Assembly (NCBI GenBank): GCA_964016885.1
Contig: OZ024755.1
Coordinates: 20,212,001 to 20,276,000 of the forward strand
Length of the DNA: 64,000 bases
Direction of reading: 5' to 3'
Origin: Eledone cirrhosa
Lineage: Eukaryota
Made by a program: the position numbers and the translations under genes. This document shows, piece by piece, positions 4,342 through 63,141 of this stretch (its first letter is position 1; each line of letters starts with the position of its first letter). The notes below the pieces were generated by a model. The model worked only from the letters and a program-made list of their open reading frames with translations, made no database searches and was not told the origin of the DNA.

Positions 4342-4736
4342 AAATCCAGTCGCACATAACATTACCTTATGCAATAATTGTTTCTACTTTAGGCACAAGG
4401 CCAGAAATTACCCAGTGCATTACTGGTACTTTATTTTATCGACCCCGTAAGGATGAAAGGCAAAGTACACCTCGGCGGGATTTGAACTCAGACCGTAAAG
4501 GGACGTAACTATGCTGGAAAGAAATCCAGTTGCACATAACATTACCTTATGCAATATTTGTTTCTACTTTAGGCACAAGGCCAGAAATTACCCAGTGCAT
4601 TACTGGTACTTTATTTTATCGACCCCGTAAGGATGAAAGGCAAAGTAAACCTCGGCGGGATTTGAACTCAGACCGTAAAGGGACGTAACTATGCTGGAAA
4701 GAAATCCAGTCGCACATAACATTATCTAATGCAATA
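4342..4736 (-). mobile_element. tandem duplication (180-bp unit) of a truncated SINE A plus flank
   Basis: 4342-4521 and 4522-4701 are nearly identical. The 35-bp flank AAATCCAGTCGCACATAACATTA... occurs three times. Confidence 0.92.
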
Positions 4737-4865
4737 TTACTTCTATATAGAAACAGGCGATATATTAGAGAACATGAGAGTCTGCGTTACAGATGTTAGT
4801 AAGGCTGTAGATCGATTCTTATAATCTACCACTAATGTTTTTTATGACTATTATTGCCATTATTG

Positions 4866-19731: not shown

Positions 19732-19763
19732 GTCTCTGTGGCTCAATCGGTTAGCGCGTTCGA

Positions 19764-19798
<35 letters not shown>

Positions 19799-19805
19799 AG
19801 GGACG
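19732..19805 (+). tRNA. trnN-GTT: tRNA-Asn (GTT), possibly a pseudogene or retrocopy
   Basis: GTCTCTGTGGCTCAATCGGTTAGCGCGTTCGACTGTTAACCGAAAGGTTGGTGGTTCAAGCCCACCCAGGGACG folds as a cloverleaf nearly identical to the canonical metazoan tRNA-Asn. It has one D-stem mismatch (T:C) and one anticodon-stem mismatch (A:C), and a short T-run downstream. Confidence 0.9.
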
Positions 19806-22720: not shown

Positions 22721-22851
22721 TAGTACAGACTAAAAGGGTAAGCATTGAATTTCTGCTTTCACCCGAAGCGGGATCATCTGAAACAGTTTCAAGTGATCCG
22801 GCGCTTCGGGTGAAAGCAGACATTTATTGCTTAAACTTTTAATCTGTACTA
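22721..22851. repeat. imperfect inverted repeat (fold-back)
   Basis: Arms at 22721-22776 and 22794-22851 (TCTGCTTTCACCCGAAGCG / CGCTTCGGGTGAAAGCAGA) with a 17-nt loop. Confidence 0.85.
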
Positions 22852-29372: not shown

Positions 29373-29380
<8 letters not shown>

Positions 29381-29596
29381 TTAGAAATTATAAGCTTTCA
29401 CCGTATTTTAGACTAAAGAAATTTCTAGCCTGATAGTGGGGTTTATAACCATCGGAGAAATGGAAAAAGATGAGTGTTGCCGTACATGGCAACACTCATC
29501 TTTTTCCATTTCTCCGATGGTTATAAACCCCACTATCAGGCTAGAAATTTCTTTAGTCTAAAATACGGTGAAAGCTTATAATTTCTAATTTCTAAT
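29373..29596. repeat. perfect 109-bp-arm palindrome (fold-back element) abutting (TA)n
   Basis: 29373-29481 is the exact reverse complement of 29488-29596. The loop is GTACAT. Confidence 0.95.
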
Positions 29597-29654
29597 TTCA
29601 AACTCGCGCACCGTTTCAAAAACATACTTACATGTTTACATTTATAATTTGCTT

Positions 29655-29708
<54 letters not shown>

Positions 29709-35229: not shown

Positions 35230-35418
35230 TTGCAGCATATGTACAAACTTTATTTGCATATTACAATTATTGCTATATCGATCAGCTCAAGGTGATGGGG
35301 CATGACATTTTTTCGACATCTCGTCAGATATGCGGCACATCTAAACTTGATTGTACCCTGAGTTGATCGATATCGAAACAATTGCAATATGCAAATAAAG
35401 TTTGTATATATGCTGCAA
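35230..35418. repeat. fold-back element (about 63-bp arms) carrying a hammerhead motif
   Basis: 35230-35293 and 35355-35418 are imperfect reverse complements. Confidence 0.88.
35256..35333 (-). ncRNA. type I hammerhead ribozyme, mutated core
   Basis: Minus strand: GCATAT-CTGACGA-GATGTCGA..loop..TCGATATA-GCAA-TAATTG-TA-ATATGC. Stem I is perfect, and the opposite arm keeps the ancestral TCGATATCGAAACAATTG. Confidence 0.65.
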
Positions 35419-40680: not shown

Positions 40681-41338
40681 ACGCTTGATATATAACACCA
40701 TCGATCTACATATTTGATAAACTAATTGAAATATACACGCACTGAGTAATTGTAATGAATATTTTTCTGAAACGAGATGCATCTATATATTAAATTTTAT
40801 TCGCTATATGTAGTGCGTTTCAAAATTATGTAAATGTTTTCTGCTAGACCTTAAATGAAAATCATATTGTGGAGAGTAGAATGGATCGCAAATGTAAAAA
40901 TGATTTTAAAGATAGTTTCTTAGATCACTTGCCATCGTCTTTAATTGCTAGAACCCTTAATTTTACCATTGAGAATTTGCCCGAATTATCGGGAATTTCT
41001 TAACACTTCACGTGTCAAAACCATCAACGTATAATGCCAAAGTATAGAATATAATGCTGGCCATAAGGAATGGGGTGACGATCTCTGAACAGAATCCCAT
41101 AACATCGCTATACAGCCACATCGATTTCATTAGATTTGCATTATATAATTAGCTTGATAGTAATCTAAAAAAATCGATCGATATTAAATCTATGACATGT
41201 TTATGGTTAAGTATGCTGGAAGATAGAGAACACTAGAAATTTGATATGAATGAATAATATAAAGTCCTCACAAGAGTTGTCACGTCTCCATACACCACGC
41301 TCTTTCTTTCTCACTTTTCATATATATAATAATAATAA

Positions 41339-41416
41339 TAATTGTTTCTACTTTTGGCACAAGGCCAGCAATTACCCAGTACATTACTGGTACTTTATTT
41401 TATCGACCCCGTAAGG
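41339..41416 (-). mobile_element. SINE A 3' fragment
   Basis: Tail and part of the core, fused to the following pLTR-like segment. Confidence 0.85.
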
Positions 41417-41671
41417 CAACGGTCAATTTTTTAAAGGGGTACGTCAATGTCTATTTATAAAACTGTTATATATTATATTTTGTCTGATGAAGGCATACCA
41501 CAATGTAACTTGGTATCCTTGAAATATATATAATGAAATAAATATGGTTTTATAAATATAGTTTCCATTTATTAATATCGTATATCTACTCCAAATATTT
41601 GTCGAGTGCTTTATATCAGTTATAAAAATATTTGCTTGTTGTATCCCAACAATTTAAATAAAACTTTTGCA
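41417..41671 (+). mobile_element. non-coding pLTR-like element with a hammerhead (single-arm copy of the 53281-53755 element)
   Basis: Aligns by eye to 53585-53755 (+) and to the reverse complement of 53281-53540. It ends in (TA)n. Confidence 0.82.
41476..41540 (+). ncRNA. type I hammerhead ribozyme (minimal, palindromic stem III)
   Basis: TATTTTGT-CTGATGA-AGGCATACCA(loop)TGGTATCCTT-GAAA-TATATA-TA-ATGAAATA. Confidence 0.75.
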
Positions 41672-41694
41672 TATATATATATATTTATATATAT

Positions 41695-42171
41695 ATTTAT
41701 TACATATCTTACAATGCTTCATATTAACTGTACTAACTAATATCGATAAAAATGGCGTCGACATTGCAATACAACGGGAGGAAACATGAATTTCTACGCC
41801 ATTTTTATTGATATTAGTTAATATAGTTAATATGAAGCATTGTAAGATATGTAATAAATGATTAATAGGTATTTCAGAAATGTATAAAGGACAAAGGATT
41901 AACAAAAAAACAAAACAAAGTAATGATATACTCACCCAGTATAACATATTTCAGGGTTATGATCCGCTTTTCAAATGCAAAACAAAACCGAAGCATTTGA
42001 AAACGAGGTACTAACTCTGAAATATGTTGAACTATACTGGGTAAACAAAAAACTTTGTTTTCTTTATTTGTCTTACATTATCCTATATATATTTCTACCA
42101 CATTGTACTGGCTTTCTGAAGTCCACATCAATGAATTATTATACATCTCACAATGCTTCATATTGATTATA
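41695..42171. repeat. double (zig-zag) fold-back element between (TA)n tracts
   Basis: Arms at 41695-41765/41789-41859, and more diverged arms at 41822-41978/41993-42171. Confidence 0.8.
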
Positions 42172-42764: not shown

Positions 42765-42767
<3 letters not shown>

Positions 42768-43067
42768 GGGAGGGTCATATTTGTGTAATAATATTGGCGT
42801 AGGCATACAATACAACAGGAGGAAACATAATAGCACCACTGACGATGTTGCAAATGTGCAACGAAAGAACTTTGTTAAACTATATATATATGTTTGTGTC
42901 TATATTATATCTGTATTTTTGACCGTCGGTCAGTCAATGGTAACATTGAGGACCGAATAAATTAAATTAACTGATATAAAAGACACAGAAGCGAAAACCA
43001 ACCAAACAGTGAGTGTGTTCTGTTATTAATTCTGGCAATATTATTACACAAATATGACCCTCCCCAA
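42765..43067 (+). mobile_element. (TA)n-embedded element with 32-bp terminal inverted repeats and an internal hammerhead-like core
   Basis: TTGGGGAGGGTCATATTTGTGTAATAATATTG and its exact reverse complement at 43036-43067. CTGACGA-T-GTTGCA(AATG)TGCAAC-GAAA lies at 42839-42866. A second partial copy lies at 54153-54325 (-). Confidence 0.8.
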
Positions 43068-43169
43068 GTATATATATATATATATATATGTTTATATATA
43101 TGATACAATTTCTGAGAAAAATATATTTATAAAATAGAGTAGAGTATTTTCAATATATATATGGGGTGG

Positions 43170-43279: not shown

Positions 43280-43702
43280 ATATATATATACGTCCTTATA
43301 CATACGAGAGATTAAGGTGCCAGAAATGAGTGAGGTCAAGACACGACATTTGCTTGAAGCTAATCTCTTTACATTTCCCAAAGAATATAATTTCATAGAA
43401 ATCGTTTATAATTGATTTGAAGAACCATGTTGTTCCGTAGAGATTTCATTTATTGATTTCTGGTGCAACTATGTTTAGAAGATATAGACCACATCTGGAA
43501 AGAGTTTAATTCTGTCCTTATCGAATCAGTTATTATTATCTAAATTTATCTTGCTGTTCTTTTATGTCCGGTGAGTGTACAAACATATATTTCTGAATAT
43601 TAATACGTTATATATTATACCAAACAGTAAGACACACATTATATATATATGAACAATATGAAAACATGGCGTGCTGCGTGGTTGCAAATGGGTTACATAT
43701 GA

Positions 43703-43925
43703 ATAAATTTAGTCCTTCATCAGTGATCTTCCAGCCTTCATCGCTTTAAAGACCATATACCTCTGGTTGGTGCGAGCAACGGCTAAAGAAAGTCGTTGGG
43801 TCTCGCTCGTTCCCCCTATTTACGTGTCCCAACGACTTTCTTTAGCCGTTGCTCGCACCAACCAGAGGTATATGGTCTTTAAAGCGATGAAGGCTGGAAG
43901 ATCACTGATGAAGGACTAAATTTAT
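43703..43925. repeat. perfect 98-bp-arm palindrome abutting (TA)n
   Basis: 43703-43800 is the exact reverse complement of 43828-43925, with a 27-nt loop. A related single-arm copy lies at 11969-12040. Confidence 0.95.
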
Positions 43926-51042: not shown

Positions 51043-52671
51043 CAGAATAAGAGAAATCCTGAATAGTCTATAACATACAATGTTTACAGCAATGAAAAAC
51101 ATCAGCCATATTCGCCTTACACGCTAGGAGGGACATACAAAGGTCGCGAGCCTTGTTTTTGTTTCACCTCTCATGACAGTTTAATAAAAATAAAGATGAA
51201 TATATGCAGATTATTCACCGCTTTTTAAAAATCTCAATTAACCAAAAACATTAATTATATTAAGAATTACGAGACAGTCATCTCTTGATTAGTTCCTTTC
51301 ATTCGACATCTCAACAATACACACATATACATGTATGAAATTGCAGTCAATAAATCTTAGATCGTTACAAGCACTTTAACTATACAATTATTTAAGAGTA
51401 TTGCTGAATGATTCCAAGTAGCATCCGTGCAAATGTTTTATAGCAGACAACCAAACGAAAATATTATTGTTTTACATTCAATTACCGAAAATATCTCTGG
51501 ATGTATGAAATATATTTTATTTACATTTGACACATTATAAATTCGTCTCATTCAATAACCAATTCTATATAAAGCCTTATCTACTTTCATTCTGACAAAT
51601 TTGATTGGCATTGGTGAATTAATAAATAATGAAAACGTGATAGAGGCCTTTCACGTCAGAAATGTAGTGTATATATATCCTGGAGTCTAATAATTCAAAT
51701 ATTTCTTTATGACATCTCTAAAGTACTTTCCAGTAATGGCGATGCTTTCTGGTCGATATTAATAGTCAGTTATTCATAGTTTATATTTAATGCTGTTGAT
51801 AAGGGGGGTACAATACATTCAAAATTCAAAATATCTTCTATTGGATGCATAAATAACACATGAAATCGATAATACCGTGCACTGCGACACAATAAATTAT
51901 ACTTAGATTTTTAATTGATCATAAATATTAATAATCGAGAGAATTTAGTTACATGCAAACACAAAATTTGCTTTCGTATTCTTTATTTGTAAGATCCGAT
52001 GCCTTTTCGATAGAAAAGTTTCATTACATTTTAGAACAGCAACTTTTATAGAAGATTTAAAAGAAAAATAAATAGTATTTCAATTAAATTAATTTAATTA
52101 TCAATGTATCGTACATAGGTTTTAAGAAATAGGATAGGTTTTGTCTGAATATGGGATTCTTAGTATATCCCATTTTGTATATTAAAAATATTCGATTACT
52201 TAATAGAATTATATGCACGAGTACAATCACATACTTGTGAGATCAATTAATAATTGATTGTAATGCTAATCCTTTTAAAGATAGGTTGATGCAATGACAT
52301 GTATCTATAGGTATGTGTGCGGGGGTAGCTCTGCGCGTGTGTGAGTATTGAAAGGTGCATGTCTTAGTGAGTAGGCTTACGATTAGGTCATCGTGGCCTC
52401 GAATGAAAGACCGGGCAGCGTGTAGTGCCCTTCAACATTTAATGTGGCTCAAGTCAAGTCAGCTAAAGTCTCAAAAACATATGGGGTTTATATTTGTGAC
52501 GAACTGTCTAGAGAGAAGACGTGGATTCGTTTACTCTCAGTTCCTAACGCAAAGAAAACAGAGATAGACTCCGTCCTGGTGAGGCTCTGCGCTTAGGACA
52601 AAGTTTAACATAACGATACGGTTTGGATGTGACAATCATCTATATAAATAAAGTGCTTAAGAATATGAAAT

Positions 52672-53257
52672 ACTTTTTAAAACATGTAATAACCTCAAAC
52701 GCAGAAAAGACCGAAACAACAGTTGATATCTATAAATAATAGCTAAGAAAATCGGGTAAAATACACTTATAGACGGAAAAAGTGGCCCAGCAGCCGTTAC
52801 AAAGATTCGAACTCTGTATTCCTCGAATTCCGATCGAGTACTCAAATCATTGAGCTAAGCGGCCACTGACAACAGACTCCGTCTGAATTAGAAGCTATAC
52901 GAAGACAGCTTCGATAGTTTCTATAGAAGGTTGTTTATATCCATAGACGAAAATAATTGATTATTTATAGCAGTCGATTGTTGATTCAACCTTTTATACG
53001 TTTGTGATTCGTATTTCTTCTAAAAACAATTCCATATTATCCAGGGTTTCGATAGTTTATATAGAGGTTTGTCACATCGAAGCTGTTAATACAGCTTCTA
53101 ATTGTGAGAGAATCTGTTGTTAGAGGTCGCTTAGGTCAATGGCTAGAGCAGTCGGCCGTAATTCGAGGAATATTAAATTCGATTCTTCTTATCGTCTGCT
53201 GTCTAATCCTACTGCAATATTTTCTGCGTTTGGGATTCCTACATTTTCTAAAAAGTG
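52672..53257. mobile_element. diverged fold-back element with a tRNA-like cassette in each arm
   Basis: Arms at about 52672-52915 and 53076-53257 are reverse complementary. The A-box-like TAGCTCAATG and B-box-like GTTCGAATC point outward. Confidence 0.65.
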
Positions 53258-53410
53258 TGTGTATATATATATATATATATGTAAAAGTTCTATTTAAATT
53301 GTTGGGATACAACAAGCAAATATTTTTATAACTGATATAAAGCACTCAACAAATATTTGGAGTAAAAATACGATATTAACAAATGGAAACTATATTTATA
53401 AAACCATATT

Positions 53411-53475
53411 TATTTCATTATACATATTTCAAGGACACCAAGTTAAATTATGGTGTGCTTTCATCAGATAAAATA
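53411..53475 (-). ncRNA. type I hammerhead ribozyme (mirror copy)
   Basis: Reverse complement of 53648-53712. Confidence 0.75.
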
Positions 53476-53647
53476 TAATATAGATCAGTTTTATAAATAA
53501 ATATTGACATACCCTTAAAGAATGCAACCATTACTGTTGGAAGCTCCCGGAATTAAGCTACAACTCCACTATCCGAGAGCTTCCAACAGTAATGGTTGCA
53601 TTCGTTAAGGGTATGTCAATATTTATTTATAAAACTTATCTATATTA

Positions 53648-53712
53648 TATTTTATCTGATGAAAGCACACCATAATTTAACTTGGTGTCCTTGAAATATG
53701 TATAATGAAATA
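53648..53712 (+). ncRNA. type I hammerhead ribozyme
   Basis: TATTTTAT-CTGATGA-AAGCACACCA(loop)TGGTGTCCTT-GAAA-TATGTA-TA-ATGAAATA. Confidence 0.75.
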
Positions 53713-53751
53713 AATATGGTTTTATAAATATAGTTTCCATTTGTTAATATC

Positions 53752-53801
<50 letters not shown>

Positions 53802-56372: not shown

Positions 56373-56375
<3 letters not shown>

Positions 56376-56606
56376 AAGTAGTAACATGTACTTACGCCGT
56401 ATTTGACTAAATAAAATAAGTCTGTTAGTTGGGATTTTAAAATAAACCTCTGAATGGAAAAAAAGGATGAGTATTGACGTACATGGGACAGGAAACTCGC
56501 ATCCTTGGTTTGCCTTTTTTCCATTCAGGGTTTGTTTTTTTAAATCACAACTAACAGACTAATTTTATTTAGTGAAATACGGCGTAAGCACAGGTTACTA
56601 CCTAAT
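56373..56606. repeat. imperfect 94-bp-arm fold-back element abutting (TA)n, related to 29373-29596
   Basis: Arms at 56373-56466 and 56513-56606. It shares ATGGAAAAA..GATGAGT.TTG.CGTACATGG and downstream TTCAAA.TCGC...GTTTC.AAACA with the 29.4-kb element. Confidence 0.88.
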
Positions 56607-57322
56607 TTTCAAATTCGCTAGCTGTTTCTAAACAAAGTCTGCTTTCTCTCTCTCTCTCTGATATATATATATATAACTTTTGCCAACAACACTAACATGG
56701 CCTGCTATGATATGATATAAATGTATATATATATATACATTTGTATCGTTAAGGTGAAGTGTCCACCACACAAACAGAAGAGGTAACTATAAGAAAAATA
56801 TTAATATGAAACAGTTCGTGAATAATATATTTGGTTCACAGCGAAGTAGAAACCTATTCACATTAACCAAAACTTATTCACTCACTCCTCTAAGGCCAGA
56901 GTCTGATAACTATTCATAATCTATGTAATATTGATATGTATATTTTATTGAGCGTTTAGTGATATACAAAAGTGAGATTGCAAATAATATGGTTGTTTGA
57001 TAAGCCTTTTCAAAGTGCCGTAGCTGTGTATTAAATGGGAAAATCTTGAAATAGTGTTACTGAAAAGAAATTAATTCCTTCTTAAAATAGGCATTATATA
57101 TTTCAATATCCGTAGTGTTACTGTGACCGTAAAAGAAATGCTTTACGATGTCCATTTTCTTTAACTTCAGAGCTTTATCATTATTAGATTTATCATATTT
57201 TCTTAGTTACAATATATATCCAAAAATATTAATGGTACATTGAATCTACTATAAATCTACTATACACTCCCACATAATTTAATTTGCCTCAAACCTAATA
57301 AAATCTACCTCTATATATCCAA

Positions 57323-60491: not shown

Positions 60492-60637
60492 TTTGAGTAT
60501 ATGTTGGTTGTATACCAACACGTCAGTATGCAGGCTGGAGCACTCAACGAAGTGCGCAGGTTGGTTTGGTTACTCCGGAGTAATGTAAAATAAAGTTAAA
60601 TAAAAAGTCAAATGTTTAAAATTTAGCTTCGTTTATT

Positions 60638-60692
60638 ACTGCTATATATATTTCAGTGACAGCCATCTTTGGCTGTGACCTCTTCAGGCAGT
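60638..60692 (-). ncRNA. type I hammerhead ribozyme in the PLE 3' region
   Basis: ACTGC-CTGAAGA-GGTCACAGCCA(AAGA)TGGCTGTCACT-GAAA-TATATA-TA-GCAGT, immediately followed by AATAAA. Confidence 0.85.
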
Positions 60693-60855
60693 CCGAATTA
60701 GTGTGGTATAGACAAGTACATATGTTGTTGAGGTGTATAATTTTGTCAATACTCTGATATGCCCAGTTCCTGGTTGGGTTGTTATTTCACTGAGGAACTG
60801 GAATCATATGAATTAAAACAAACGAATTTCAGTGTCAAAGGGCCTCTTCTCCTCT

Positions 60856-60997
60856 CATTGGTCAGATGTTAGAACATTCCTCATTCTAAGTGTTGTTATT
60901 GTTGGAGTTAGCTTAACAAATTGATAAAGTGGTAGAAGGAACAAGGTGGTAAAGGAACAAAATAACAAAAAACGTGTCAAACTTCCCATTGGTCAGA
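60856..60997 (-). promoter_or_regulatory. two CCAAT boxes in the PLE 3' region (putative pLTR promoter)
   Basis: TCTGACCAATG on the minus strand at 60856-60866 and 60987-60997, upstream of the hammerhead. Confidence 0.4.
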
Positions 60998-61835
60998 AGT
61001 CTATAGAATAATTCTTTCTGGGGTGAGGCTCCGTGTAGTGTTTGTGTTTGCTATTGTTAAGTACATTTGACCTCTACCATTATTTCGGTATTGTTGTTGG
61101 TGTTGTGGTAAGCTTATGAATTGCTGCTGCTGACAATTTAGAAGTATCTGTGTGTGTTTTTTCTTCATCCCTCCTGCCACCATCTCTCATAGTGGGGGGG
61201 GGGATTCTTCCATGTATATGAAGAAATATAAGGCAATAAATTAAGAAAACAGAAAATAAATAATAAATAGAGAATAAAGAATAAAGAATAAATGAAAAAT
61301 TGGTGAAAAAGTAATGAAAATGAATATGGAGAAGTGAAACATAAAATGAAGATTCAAATAAAGTAGGATAAAGTGTGTGTGTGCTATAACCAATCTCAAG
61401 GTCAGAAATATGTTGGATAGATTGGTATGAGGGACAAGATGTTAAAATAAGATAATCACACAAAATGTGTTTGTTATAATCAATCTCAACTTAAAAATAA
61501 ATATAAGGTGATACAGTGAAGAGAGAAGAAAACAAATAAATTAATAAAGAGAAATCAAGATTTAAAATTGGAACTTGAAAATCAGAAATCAAGTAAATTA
61601 AAATGTGTTTGTGTTATATAGATGTTGGCCAAATTATAATGGCTGTGTCCGATTCAATCTCCAGGCTATCATGGTGTCTGCTCGGCCTGGGTTGTTCCTT
61701 ATGGCTTGAGGGGAGTTCACAACCTAGGGTGTTTTGTTACTGCCCATATAGCTTGAGGGAGGTCTGGCCGAGAGGTGTTTACATGTTCTGTAGAAGTCCC
61801 TATAGCTTGAGGGGAGTTCTCATCTTTTTGTGTTG

Positions 61836-62971
61836 CTACTGTCCATATATCTTGAGGAAGGCTCTAAGGTGTCTGCATGTCCCGAAGAAGTCGGTTCTGA
61901 GGTTTATCAGGCCGCTTCCACCTCTTAGTATCTCGAGGGTCTCGTTCAGGCATAGTTTGCATATACAAGATCCCCCTTTATCGGGTGGTACTTTCCTGAT
62001 TATGTACCAGGCCAGAGAGTACGGGATCCTGTCCAGCTTAAGCTTCCAGATCAGGTCGGAGAGAGCCGTGCTTTTCCTTATGGCCTCCTTATTGAATAAA
62101 TGGCGATGGTTGTACCAGCGGTCTTTAAAGCTTGTTGATGTGGCTCCTATGTAGGGGTGTTCGGAGTTGGGGGTTTTAACCCTACTACCCTATACTAGGT
62201 TCTTCTTGAGGCATTCATTAACAAGGGGGCATGATTCGGGGTTTCTGCAGTTGCAGAGGGTGGTCGACCTCTGCGTGCCTATATTAGGGTTCCCGTTATG
62301 TGTTACATGTTGGTCTTCCCCCAGGCCCGGTGGGGAATCCCCGGGTCTGTTTGGGTTTCTTGTGTGGGCTCTGGGTACCCCTCCCCTCCTTTCACATGGT
62401 TCTGCTGAGTGCTTGTATTGCCATCTTCTGGTTGTGTGTGGTTTTTAAGCCTACTCCTGTTGATGGTAGATATGTGTTGGGCCAGGTTTCTCGTGGTGGA
62501 ATACGAGAGCTTCACAGTGTGTCTGTTGAAGATCCTGTGGTATCTATGGTCCCTCGGGAAGCATTTATCAAGTGCTCCAAAGAATAATCGGGCCAAGCTG
62601 TTCTTTAGGGCCGCTGAGTAGGGTGGATTGTACCACGTGATTTTTCGGTGTCTCCTCCTATATGTGTGGGTCGGGCGCGTCGTGATTTGTTGGAGGTTTG
62701 TTGGGTTGCTAGTGATTCCCGCACTGTTGCTTCCCCTTTGGGCGCTATGCTTTTTGTTATCTTCACGGCCCGAATCTGTGGGGTGGTCGTTGCCCGCGCT
62801 GGGAGATCTATCGTGGGGTGGTCCCCCGTTTCCCCCCTCCCTACGTGTCGTGCGGTTGGGGTCGTCGGTCTTGGGGTGGTTAGCGTCACCCCTGAGACTG
62901 CTACTCATATTGTGTTTCATCTCGTGGTTAAGCGTACTAGTCACCACCGCCCGTGAGGTGGTATCGGGCAC
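61836..62971 (-). pseudogene. PLE linker plus GIY-YIG endonuclease, disrupted
   Basis: RRRHRKITWYNPPYS...LDKCFPRDHRYHRIFNRHTVKLSYS, then a frameshift, then CNCRNPESCPLVNECLKKNLV*GSRVKTPNSEHPYIGATSTSFKDRWYNH...STALSDLIWKLK...CKLCLNE...INLRTDFFGTCRH. There is an in-frame TAG at 62190-62192 and the stop at 61836-61838. Confidence 0.9.
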
Positions 62972-63051
62972 ATGGTGCCTATTTGTTTCTGCTCTGCCTG
63001 TATTGCATTTTTGTTTTTAAAATGCAAAGTCAATAAATACACCAGGATTTT

Positions 63052-63112
63052 TTTCATTCTGATGATTGAAAGCAAAATTTTTTTGCTTTTAAGAAACCAA
63101 TGGTAAATGAAA
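63052..63112 (+). ncRNA. type I hammerhead ribozyme, intact
   Basis: TTTCATT-CTGATGA-TTGAAAGCAAAA(TTT)TTTTGCTTTTAA-GAAA-CCAATGG-TA-AATGAAA: a 7-bp stem I, a 12-bp stem II and a GUA cleavage triplet. Confidence 0.85.
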
Positions 63113-63141
63113 TAATTGCCTTATGTTGTTTATTACATAAC

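Follow-up and report, generated by a model that had tools for sequence, protein, structure and literature searches.

A hammerhead-bearing repeat of Eledone cirrhosa as the likely truncated 3′ end of a Penelope-like element

Within a 64,000-nucleotide stretch of Eledone cirrhosa DNA (the window), the plus-strand repeat at 41417–41671 (copy A) is very likely the 5′-truncated, non-coding 3′ end (the pseudo-LTR region) of a high-copy Penelope-like element (PLE) family, probably of the Hydra clade, and carries a type I hammerhead with a palindromic helix III. Copy A has the long-arm form of the repeat, is about 92% like the long arm of a second insertion (locus B, or copy B), and ends in a (TA)n tract at 41671–41700. 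No coding region was found near A or B, tblastn locating PLE remnants in the window only at 61854–62677, and the Hydra-clade link of family A/B, as judged from sequence, runs through the shared hammerhead form only.

An earlier note had read a hammerhead in copy A, and this reading is borne out, with a complete core and helices in both copies. The fold spans 41452–41558 on the plus strand and is of type I: CUGANGA, GAAA and UH surround a three-way junction, with the open ends in helix I. The distal part of helix I pairs 41452–41464 with 41546–41558 and the proximal part pairs 41476–41483 with 41533–41540, forming 13 of 13 and 8 of 8 pairs, respectively, in both A and B. The core box CUGAUGA (CTGATGA in the DNA, 41484–41490) leads into helix II (41491–41520), in which arms 41491–41500 and 41511–41520 form nine pairs around a 10-nt loop. 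The GAAA box, read directly at 41521–41524, is followed by helix III (41524–41531), a palindrome of A and U only that makes 8 of 8 self-pairs in each copy, two of those in B through G.U, at a predicted self-duplex energy of only −3.2 kcal/mol. U16.1 is at 41531 and A17 at 41532, and the predicted cut presumably falls 3′ of A17, where standard hammerhead numbering puts it and where the earlier note had placed it.

The fold is more stable than shuffled sequences in both copies (z −2.3 for A, −3.3 for B). The lowest-energy fold of copy A is not the active one and misplaces helix I, for which reason copy A, probably a dead insert, would be expected to cut poorly alone. No Rfam hammerhead model reached its gathering score in the window and none matched 41400–41700 at E ≤ 10, which bears on membership of the Rfam families and not on the fold.

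Locus B shows the form in which the family inserts. Its long arm (53283–53551, minus strand, core at 53467) carries the hammerhead and a tail and ends near (TA)n, and its short arm (53572–53752, plus strand, core at 53656) carries an identical hammerhead and is flush with (TA)n. Arms 53368–53551 (−) and 53572–53755 (+) are identical at 181 of 184 positions (three differences) and are separated by a 20-nt spacer (53552–53571), with (TA)n on both sides. Short arms reach (TA)n immediately after the equivalent of 41585, whereas long arms continue for about 86 nt, a one-sided tail that occupies 41586–41671 in copy A. Locus B is therefore a head-to-head inverted pair with a one-sided tail, and displays both the 5′ truncation and the inverted copy characteristic of PLE insertion, which passages of PMC8557442 describe as an inverted 5′-truncated copy with a terminal tail on one side, 30–40 bp long and so shorter than the one here, and a preference for (TA)n. 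Insertion into (TA)n, expected of the Hydra clade, was found for family A/B, but such targeting is common to Hydra, Naiad and Neptune and is not diagnostic. PMC4209133 reports opposite-strand hammerhead pairs 100–700 bp apart, together with many single motifs from truncated PLEs.

In four of eight hand-picked intervals (locus B, 29375–29657, 43651–43922 and 56375–56655), one arm directly abuts (TA)n and the other side extends by 51–79 nt; locus B is the only one of these four foldbacks with a hammerhead. In the other three, the extension is 51–63 nt and no hammerhead was called; the 43.7-kb foldback has a CTGATGA half-core near each arm end, and the 29.4-kb and 56.4-kb foldbacks look alike by eye. 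Older imperfect palindromes, with arm identities of 73–83%, occur at 41701–41853, immediately after copy A's terminal (TA)n tract, and at 22726–22846 and 35230–35418. A MITE-like element with perfect 32-bp terminal inverted repeats lies between (TA)n tracts at 42765–43068, and nested degenerate inverted repeats just upstream of locus B (52623–53201) include a weak tRNA-like match (52792–52863, 31.9 bits).

A long inverted repeat flanked by TA, as at locus B, could also be produced by a foldback DNA transposon (a MITE) inserting at TA, with the hammerhead-like motif a passenger or a chance likeness, and MITEs and Tc1/mariner elements are described as common in octopus in a part of PMC13282606. 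Such an origin is highly improbable given the unequal arms with their recurrent one-sided tail, the single-armed copy A without terminal repeats, and the presence of such hammerheads 3′ of PLE open reading frames in 22 loci (among the best 79 of 290) and in published Hydra elements.

The earlier note had pointed to a compensatory change in helix II between the two copies and called it direct evidence of selection on RNA structure. Over 223 positions, 16 differences separate copy A from copy B, and 12 of these are transitions. Comparing copy A with the right arm of copy B (core 53656–53662, helix II 53663–53692), we read the same changes directly: at 41496/41515, A has U-A where B has C-G, and at 41492/41519, A has G.U where B has A-U, G-C being a third state of the latter pair. 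The core boxes are the same and loop bases 41501 and 41505 differ, again as described. Three further features do not appear in the earlier note. Both copies have a C.C mismatch at 41494/41517 in helix II. Outside helix II, a G.U/A-U difference at helix I position 41482 keeps pairing, and an A/G difference at 41528 keeps the helix III palindrome through G.U.

Taken alone, the A/B double change is weak evidence of selection, and it is one inherited event. The window contains three copies with only two distinct helix II sequences, since the two arms of locus B share the same hammerhead. When the same number of substitutions was placed at random, the probability of at least one helix double change was 0.09 over the whole stretch and 0.17 over the ribozyme region. 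Lower probabilities were obtained for all three helix II changes being kept, including a double one (P 0.04), for all five helix changes being kept (P about 0.016) and for these plus an intact core (P 0.002–0.018), values that are biased toward the low side by helices drawn by hand with both copies in view. A two-sequence covariation score was equalled in 253 of 500 shuffles, so pair counting on two rows is uninformative. The claim of direct evidence thus does not stand on the two copies, but structural constraint does stand once family variants and two distant hammerheads are added.

Family variants were collected from four of 16 sequencing runs, aligned to 41400–41672 at 80% likeness, three as contigs (X1, X4 and X6) and one as RAD DNA reads (X14). 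The alignments returned 6,479 contigs from X1, 73 from X4, 17 from X6 and 33,040 reads from X14; the repeat is very abundant, although these totals do not give a copy number. Strongly divergent reads are clipped in such alignments, which hides the most divergent copies, and three rows with many read ends derive from the RAD DNA library and were disregarded. Variant figures rest on 40 of 83 variant rows listed. Among these 40, the CUGAUGA box shows no variant, nor do any of the 11 invariant core positions. All nine helix variants in the same 40 rows are transitions, compared with 15 transversions in the other 31 (Fisher P 0.015), and seven of the nine keep pairing by themselves on the plus strand. 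In the listed rows, neither the helices (9 of 66 positions variable, P 0.15) nor the core (0 of 11, P 0.08) varies significantly less than the unpaired positions (8 of 30).

These data place the A/B difference within the family. In X1, C at 41496 accounts for 4.6% of depth (24 contigs) and G at 41515 for 8.6% (20 contigs), and from these shares we recognize U-A as the majority state and C-G as a minor subfamily, with room left for U.G intermediates. In X4, three contigs sum to the depth at 41496, two with U-A and one with C-G and none with a mismatch; the C-G contig (depth 86.6) is the only one with both changes, and its seven differences equal copy B's number in that span. The subfamily difference likely passed through U.G: G at 41515 is commoner than C at 41496 in both X1 and X14, as that route predicts. 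The loop changes, which do differ between the copies as the earlier note had it, are private to copy A, T at 41501 accounting for 228,901 of 228,926 X1 depth units. Some variants disturb helix II. T>C at 41520 would leave its pair intact only with G at 41491, a base found solely in a loose-end consensus with an agreement of 0.55, and base 41498 is missing in 162 reads. A loose-end consensus of 5,301 reads has a different distal helix II that by eye is still self-complementary. Loose ends in (TA)n after 41585 occur in 62 X1 contigs and 5,701 X14 reads, and also in X4 and X6. An exact 26-base pattern from the window had no match in metagenome, viral or prokaryote collections.

X1 depth falls steeply toward the 5′ end, from 4.3 million at 41540–41549 to 777 at 41410–41419. 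This fall, together with the lack of an open reading frame near A or B, could point to a short non-autonomous PLE derivative resembling a retrozyme, never coding and spreading as small hammerhead RNAs with the help of PLE enzymes. Animal non-LTR retrozymes, as portrayed in parts of PMC7229834 and bioRxiv 10.64898/2026.07.22.740005, are likewise short, non-coding, AT-rich repeats with a type I hammerhead and a proposed dependence on PLE enzymes, and in the latter source animal retrozymes reportedly derive from PLE pseudo-LTRs. We consider this reading possible but rather unlikely. The depth fall fits plain 5′ truncation equally well. Retrozymes form head-to-tail tandems of 150–450 bp (PMC7229834, in part), whereas the copies here are single or head to head: the window contains no tandem, and no direct-orientation joint of 3′ to 5′ end appears among the contig and read joints listed, although short reads and contigs could hide rare ones. 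The helix sizes of A/B also depart from the canonical 6 bp/4 bp.

Elsewhere in the window lies a remnant of a Hydra-clade PLE, which is not part of family A/B. A broken linker and the end of a GIY-YIG endonuclease were located by tblastn at 61854–62677 on the minus strand, matching full RT-EN proteins (RT-linker-EN) with E down to 3e-26. The remnant carries the CxCx5C linker, CxxC and CxH motifs, which with RWK and DKT are the Hydra diagnostics listed in section 11 of PMC8557442, and two of three full-length relatives checked (P0001 and P0027) also have RW[KR] and DKT. At E ≤ 0.001 the endonuclease piece finds 2,565 relatives, and the Atlas contains GIY-YIG look-alikes of it. Pfam left the remnant and five of seven long or top relatives unnamed, the other two having a sub-threshold GIY-YIG match and a weak unrelated match, respectively; searching proteins by shared words gave no match to the endonuclease piece, and viral contigs yielded no PLE relative.

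Hammerheads flank this remnant. A covariance model built from A and B alone (R1), whose E-values are rough, gave 24 window matches at E ≤ 5, led by the three source copies and followed by 60633–60700 (minus strand, 38.4 bits, E 6.5e-6), 3′ of the remnant, and 63049–63115 (plus strand, 30.8 bits, E 3.6e-4), a third hammerhead type, which sits at the opposite end of the remnant with (TA)n 36 nt away. The next match (E 0.027) is a simple repeat. At 60492–63141, two (TA)n arrays enclose the PLE remnant, each end of which bears a hammerhead, the two being unrelated and on opposite strands. About 1.1 kb of 3′ untranslated sequence separates the end of the remnant's open reading frame from the first motif. 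Helix III of the 63-kb motif is that given for Hydra-1_oBim in File S2 of PMC8557442. Flanks of A outside the hammerhead do not significantly resemble those of the other two window motifs, 16–211 of 300 shuffles scoring as high.

Copy A and the 60.7-kb motif agree in three respects: a C.C mismatch at pair 4 of helix II, the palindrome of helix III and the triplet at the cut. Four helix II pairs differ between them on both sides, three of these double changes being transversions. Across the four distinct motifs, a double change was found in 16 of 19 pairs and in none of 500 shuffles, in an alignment fitted to the model and uncorrected for relatedness. Covariation, which the earlier note had proposed to check over all copies, is not supported by A and B alone; the family variants and the four motifs do support it. 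On the strength of the family-wide variants and the two distant window hammerheads, structural constraint on the hammerhead is well supported; selection, if any, would act on the transposing source RNA and not on dead copies.

The paired change could instead have arisen neutrally or at the DNA level, through two independent transitions, through template-switch hairpin repair in single-stranded cDNA, or through A-to-I editing fixed by reverse transcription, with no selection on the ribozyme. A-to-I editing acts on double-stranded RNA. Both changes are transitions, like most A/B differences; the chance probability of 0.09–0.17 is not small; six of the nine helix variants (in the 40 of 83 rows listed) are A/G, which editing could produce; and a test of wobble polarity was not significant (5 of 6, P 0.11). 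We nevertheless judge such an origin quite improbable. Hairpin repair would erase the G.U pairs and the C.C mismatch, yet both persist, the mismatch being common to the distant 60.7-kb motif. Editing would leave a bias toward A/G, yet over the whole stretch A/G and C/T variable places are about equal (15 vs 14 in X1, 26 vs 20 in X14), with no overall bias seen. The transversions among the four helix II double changes between A and the 60.7-kb motif also speak against such an origin.

Hammerheads accompany related elements more widely. A hammerhead descriptor applied to the best 79 of 290 metagenome loci of the PLE protein family picked out 22 loci with 25 hammerheads between them, every one on the coding strand, and gave none in 10 rounds of shuffles; the descriptor required a near-palindromic helix III, and many of the 79 loci are redundant. 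Among these 25 (best 79 of 290 loci), the cut follows UA in 17, and in 23 no extra base precedes helix II. R1 gave only three weak matches in the same best 79 of 290 loci and is too narrow for distant elements. No homology to these 79 of 290 loci was found for copy A, the best E being 0.014 for one 27-base piece. Loci L008, L015, L016 and L019 have a hammerhead about 190–210 nt upstream of the PLE coding match, and L015 and L016 have one downstream too, a pseudo-LTR arrangement; by eye, the motif of L019 corresponds to the one that File S2 gives for Penelope-1_NV.

Family A/B resembles the hammerheads of Hydra-clade PLEs as described in parts of Craig et al. 2021 (PMC8557442). These are likewise type I, lie near the 3′ end, have a long near-palindromic helix III, frequently cut after UA, target (TA)n, and occur on both strands where an inverted 5′-truncated copy is present. 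File S2 of that source includes Hydra-1_oBim of Octopus bimaculoides, and Penelope-13_HM, which has an inverted 5′ copy with the motif on both strands. Compared by eye with the File S2 rows, the A/B sequence is different. A/B further differs from the Hydra-clade elements in its 10-position helix II, its C.C mismatch at pair 4 (absent from the 25 hammerheads in the best 79 of 290 loci), its A/U-only helix III, its 86-nt tail and the lack of a linked open reading frame. The conserved C.C mismatch in a long helix II may mark a cephalopod hammerhead subtype with its own tertiary contact.

A second comparison is with the minimal PLE hammerheads of metazoans (Cervera and de la Pena 2014, PMC4209133), which in the parts considered share with A/B the thousands of dispersed single motifs from truncated PLEs, the long helix II, the palindromic helix III and the opposite-strand pairs 100–700 bp apart. 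The A/B motif does not follow the strict 2014 consensus: no extra unpaired base stands after CUGANGA, before helix II (between 9 and 10.1), and pair 10.1-11.1 is A-U instead of the usual G10.1-C11.1. In lacking the extra base it is like 23 of the 25 Hydra-clade hammerheads (best 79 of 290 loci), and shrimp and hemichordate examples in PMC4209133 are also without it. Figure S3 of PMC4209133 shows no cephalopod among its 56 motifs. Other cephalopod records include 235 Rfam hammerhead matches in giant squid (PMC6962438, in part) and recently active Penelope-like families in Octopus vulgaris (PMC13282606, in passages that leave ribozymes unmentioned); octopus is likewise unmentioned in the parts of PMC7229834 and bioRxiv 10.64898/2026.07.22.740005 that concern retrozymes. 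A literature search, mostly of open-access papers, found no description of family A/B.

On its left side, copy A adjoins a SINE. The earlier note had described copy A as single-armed and fused to a SINE tail in opposite orientation, and copy A is indeed single-armed, with the 80-bp 3′ end of an abundant SINE on the opposite strand next to it. By window comparison, this 5′-truncated 3′-terminal piece and its (ATT)n tail occupy 41328–41416, head to head with copy A. The SINE piece proper (41337–41416) is 96% like another of the 23 SINE pieces in the window, and reads on the minus strand, since its tail stands at the left. The SINE surroundings also include 2.2 tandem copies, 97% alike, of a 180-bp unit in which a truncated SINE is joined to its flank (4342–4738), and a tRNA match between SINE copies (19732–19805, 55.5 bits, GTT in the anticodon loop).

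A family-wide fusion of SINE and hammerhead was considered and rejected on contig depth, which is 0 at 41400–41409 in X1, X4 and X6; X14 has about one read there. A SINE origin for 41417–41426 was also rejected, as X4 record 8, a contig that lacks the SINE, matches from 41417 onward and carries 260 bases of other sequence before that point, and as the stretch can be aligned with sequence upstream in B. The SINE piece has no target-site duplication around it, compared with six of eight other short tailed copies that have one (some of these matches include tail-like letters), and the window holds no SINE remainder beyond copy A and no element remainder before the SINE. The junction is a one-off and, lacking a target duplication and any remainder of either piece across it, was produced either by joint insertion or by later deletion.

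The SINE thus stands at copy A in the place of a short arm, and unlike arms occur in two other cases. Cut-to-end lengths are 151 and 36 nt at 60.5–63.1 kb, compared with 139 and 53 nt for family A/B. In X1 record 3, a 391-nt contig of depth 6.75, two arms stand head to head: the short one, which stops at 41585, has 25 differences from copy A, and the long one has two. These three cases suggest that inverted PLE arms might be primed separately and copied from different RNA molecules, an idea we regard as unlikely. Each case could also be explained by successive insertions at a single (TA)n hotspot, by a deletion that followed in an unstable hairpin, or by chimerism of the contig. Insertion of PLEs next to older copies, reported in a part of PMC6765202, would explain the same arm data. 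No account of PLE arms with different templates was found in the literature searched, mostly open-access papers. Such arms, if common, would constrain the mechanism of PLE integration.

For the insertion of PLE copies, we propose the following scheme. Source elements would be transcribed on the plus strand, and two hammerheads would pair through the helix III palindrome, cut after the equivalent of 41532 and process the precursor RNA. The weak helix III would need a second copy for pairing, that is, dimerization; dependence on dimers and low in vitro activity are reported for PLE hammerheads in parts of PMC4209133 and PMC6765202. Short cDNAs would then be placed in (TA)n by a PLE RT/GIY-YIG protein, in many cases with a short arm inverted relative to a long one. 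As further spread would be confined to source RNAs whose fold stays intact, subfamilies would come to differ by wobble and compensatory changes, and the U-A/C-G pair may be one such subfamily difference.

As it stands, the finding matters little, its kind being already on record: hammerheads at PLE ends, the foldback form and an octopus Hydra element with a hammerhead are published, as is covariation, PLE hammerhead families being described as full of covariations in a passage of PMC4209133, and A/B is an ordinary further family. The in vivo role of PLE hammerhead cleavage is still called unclear in parts of PMC8557442 and PMC4209133, and family A/B offers a very large natural set of variants in which purifying selection on that cleavage could be tested.
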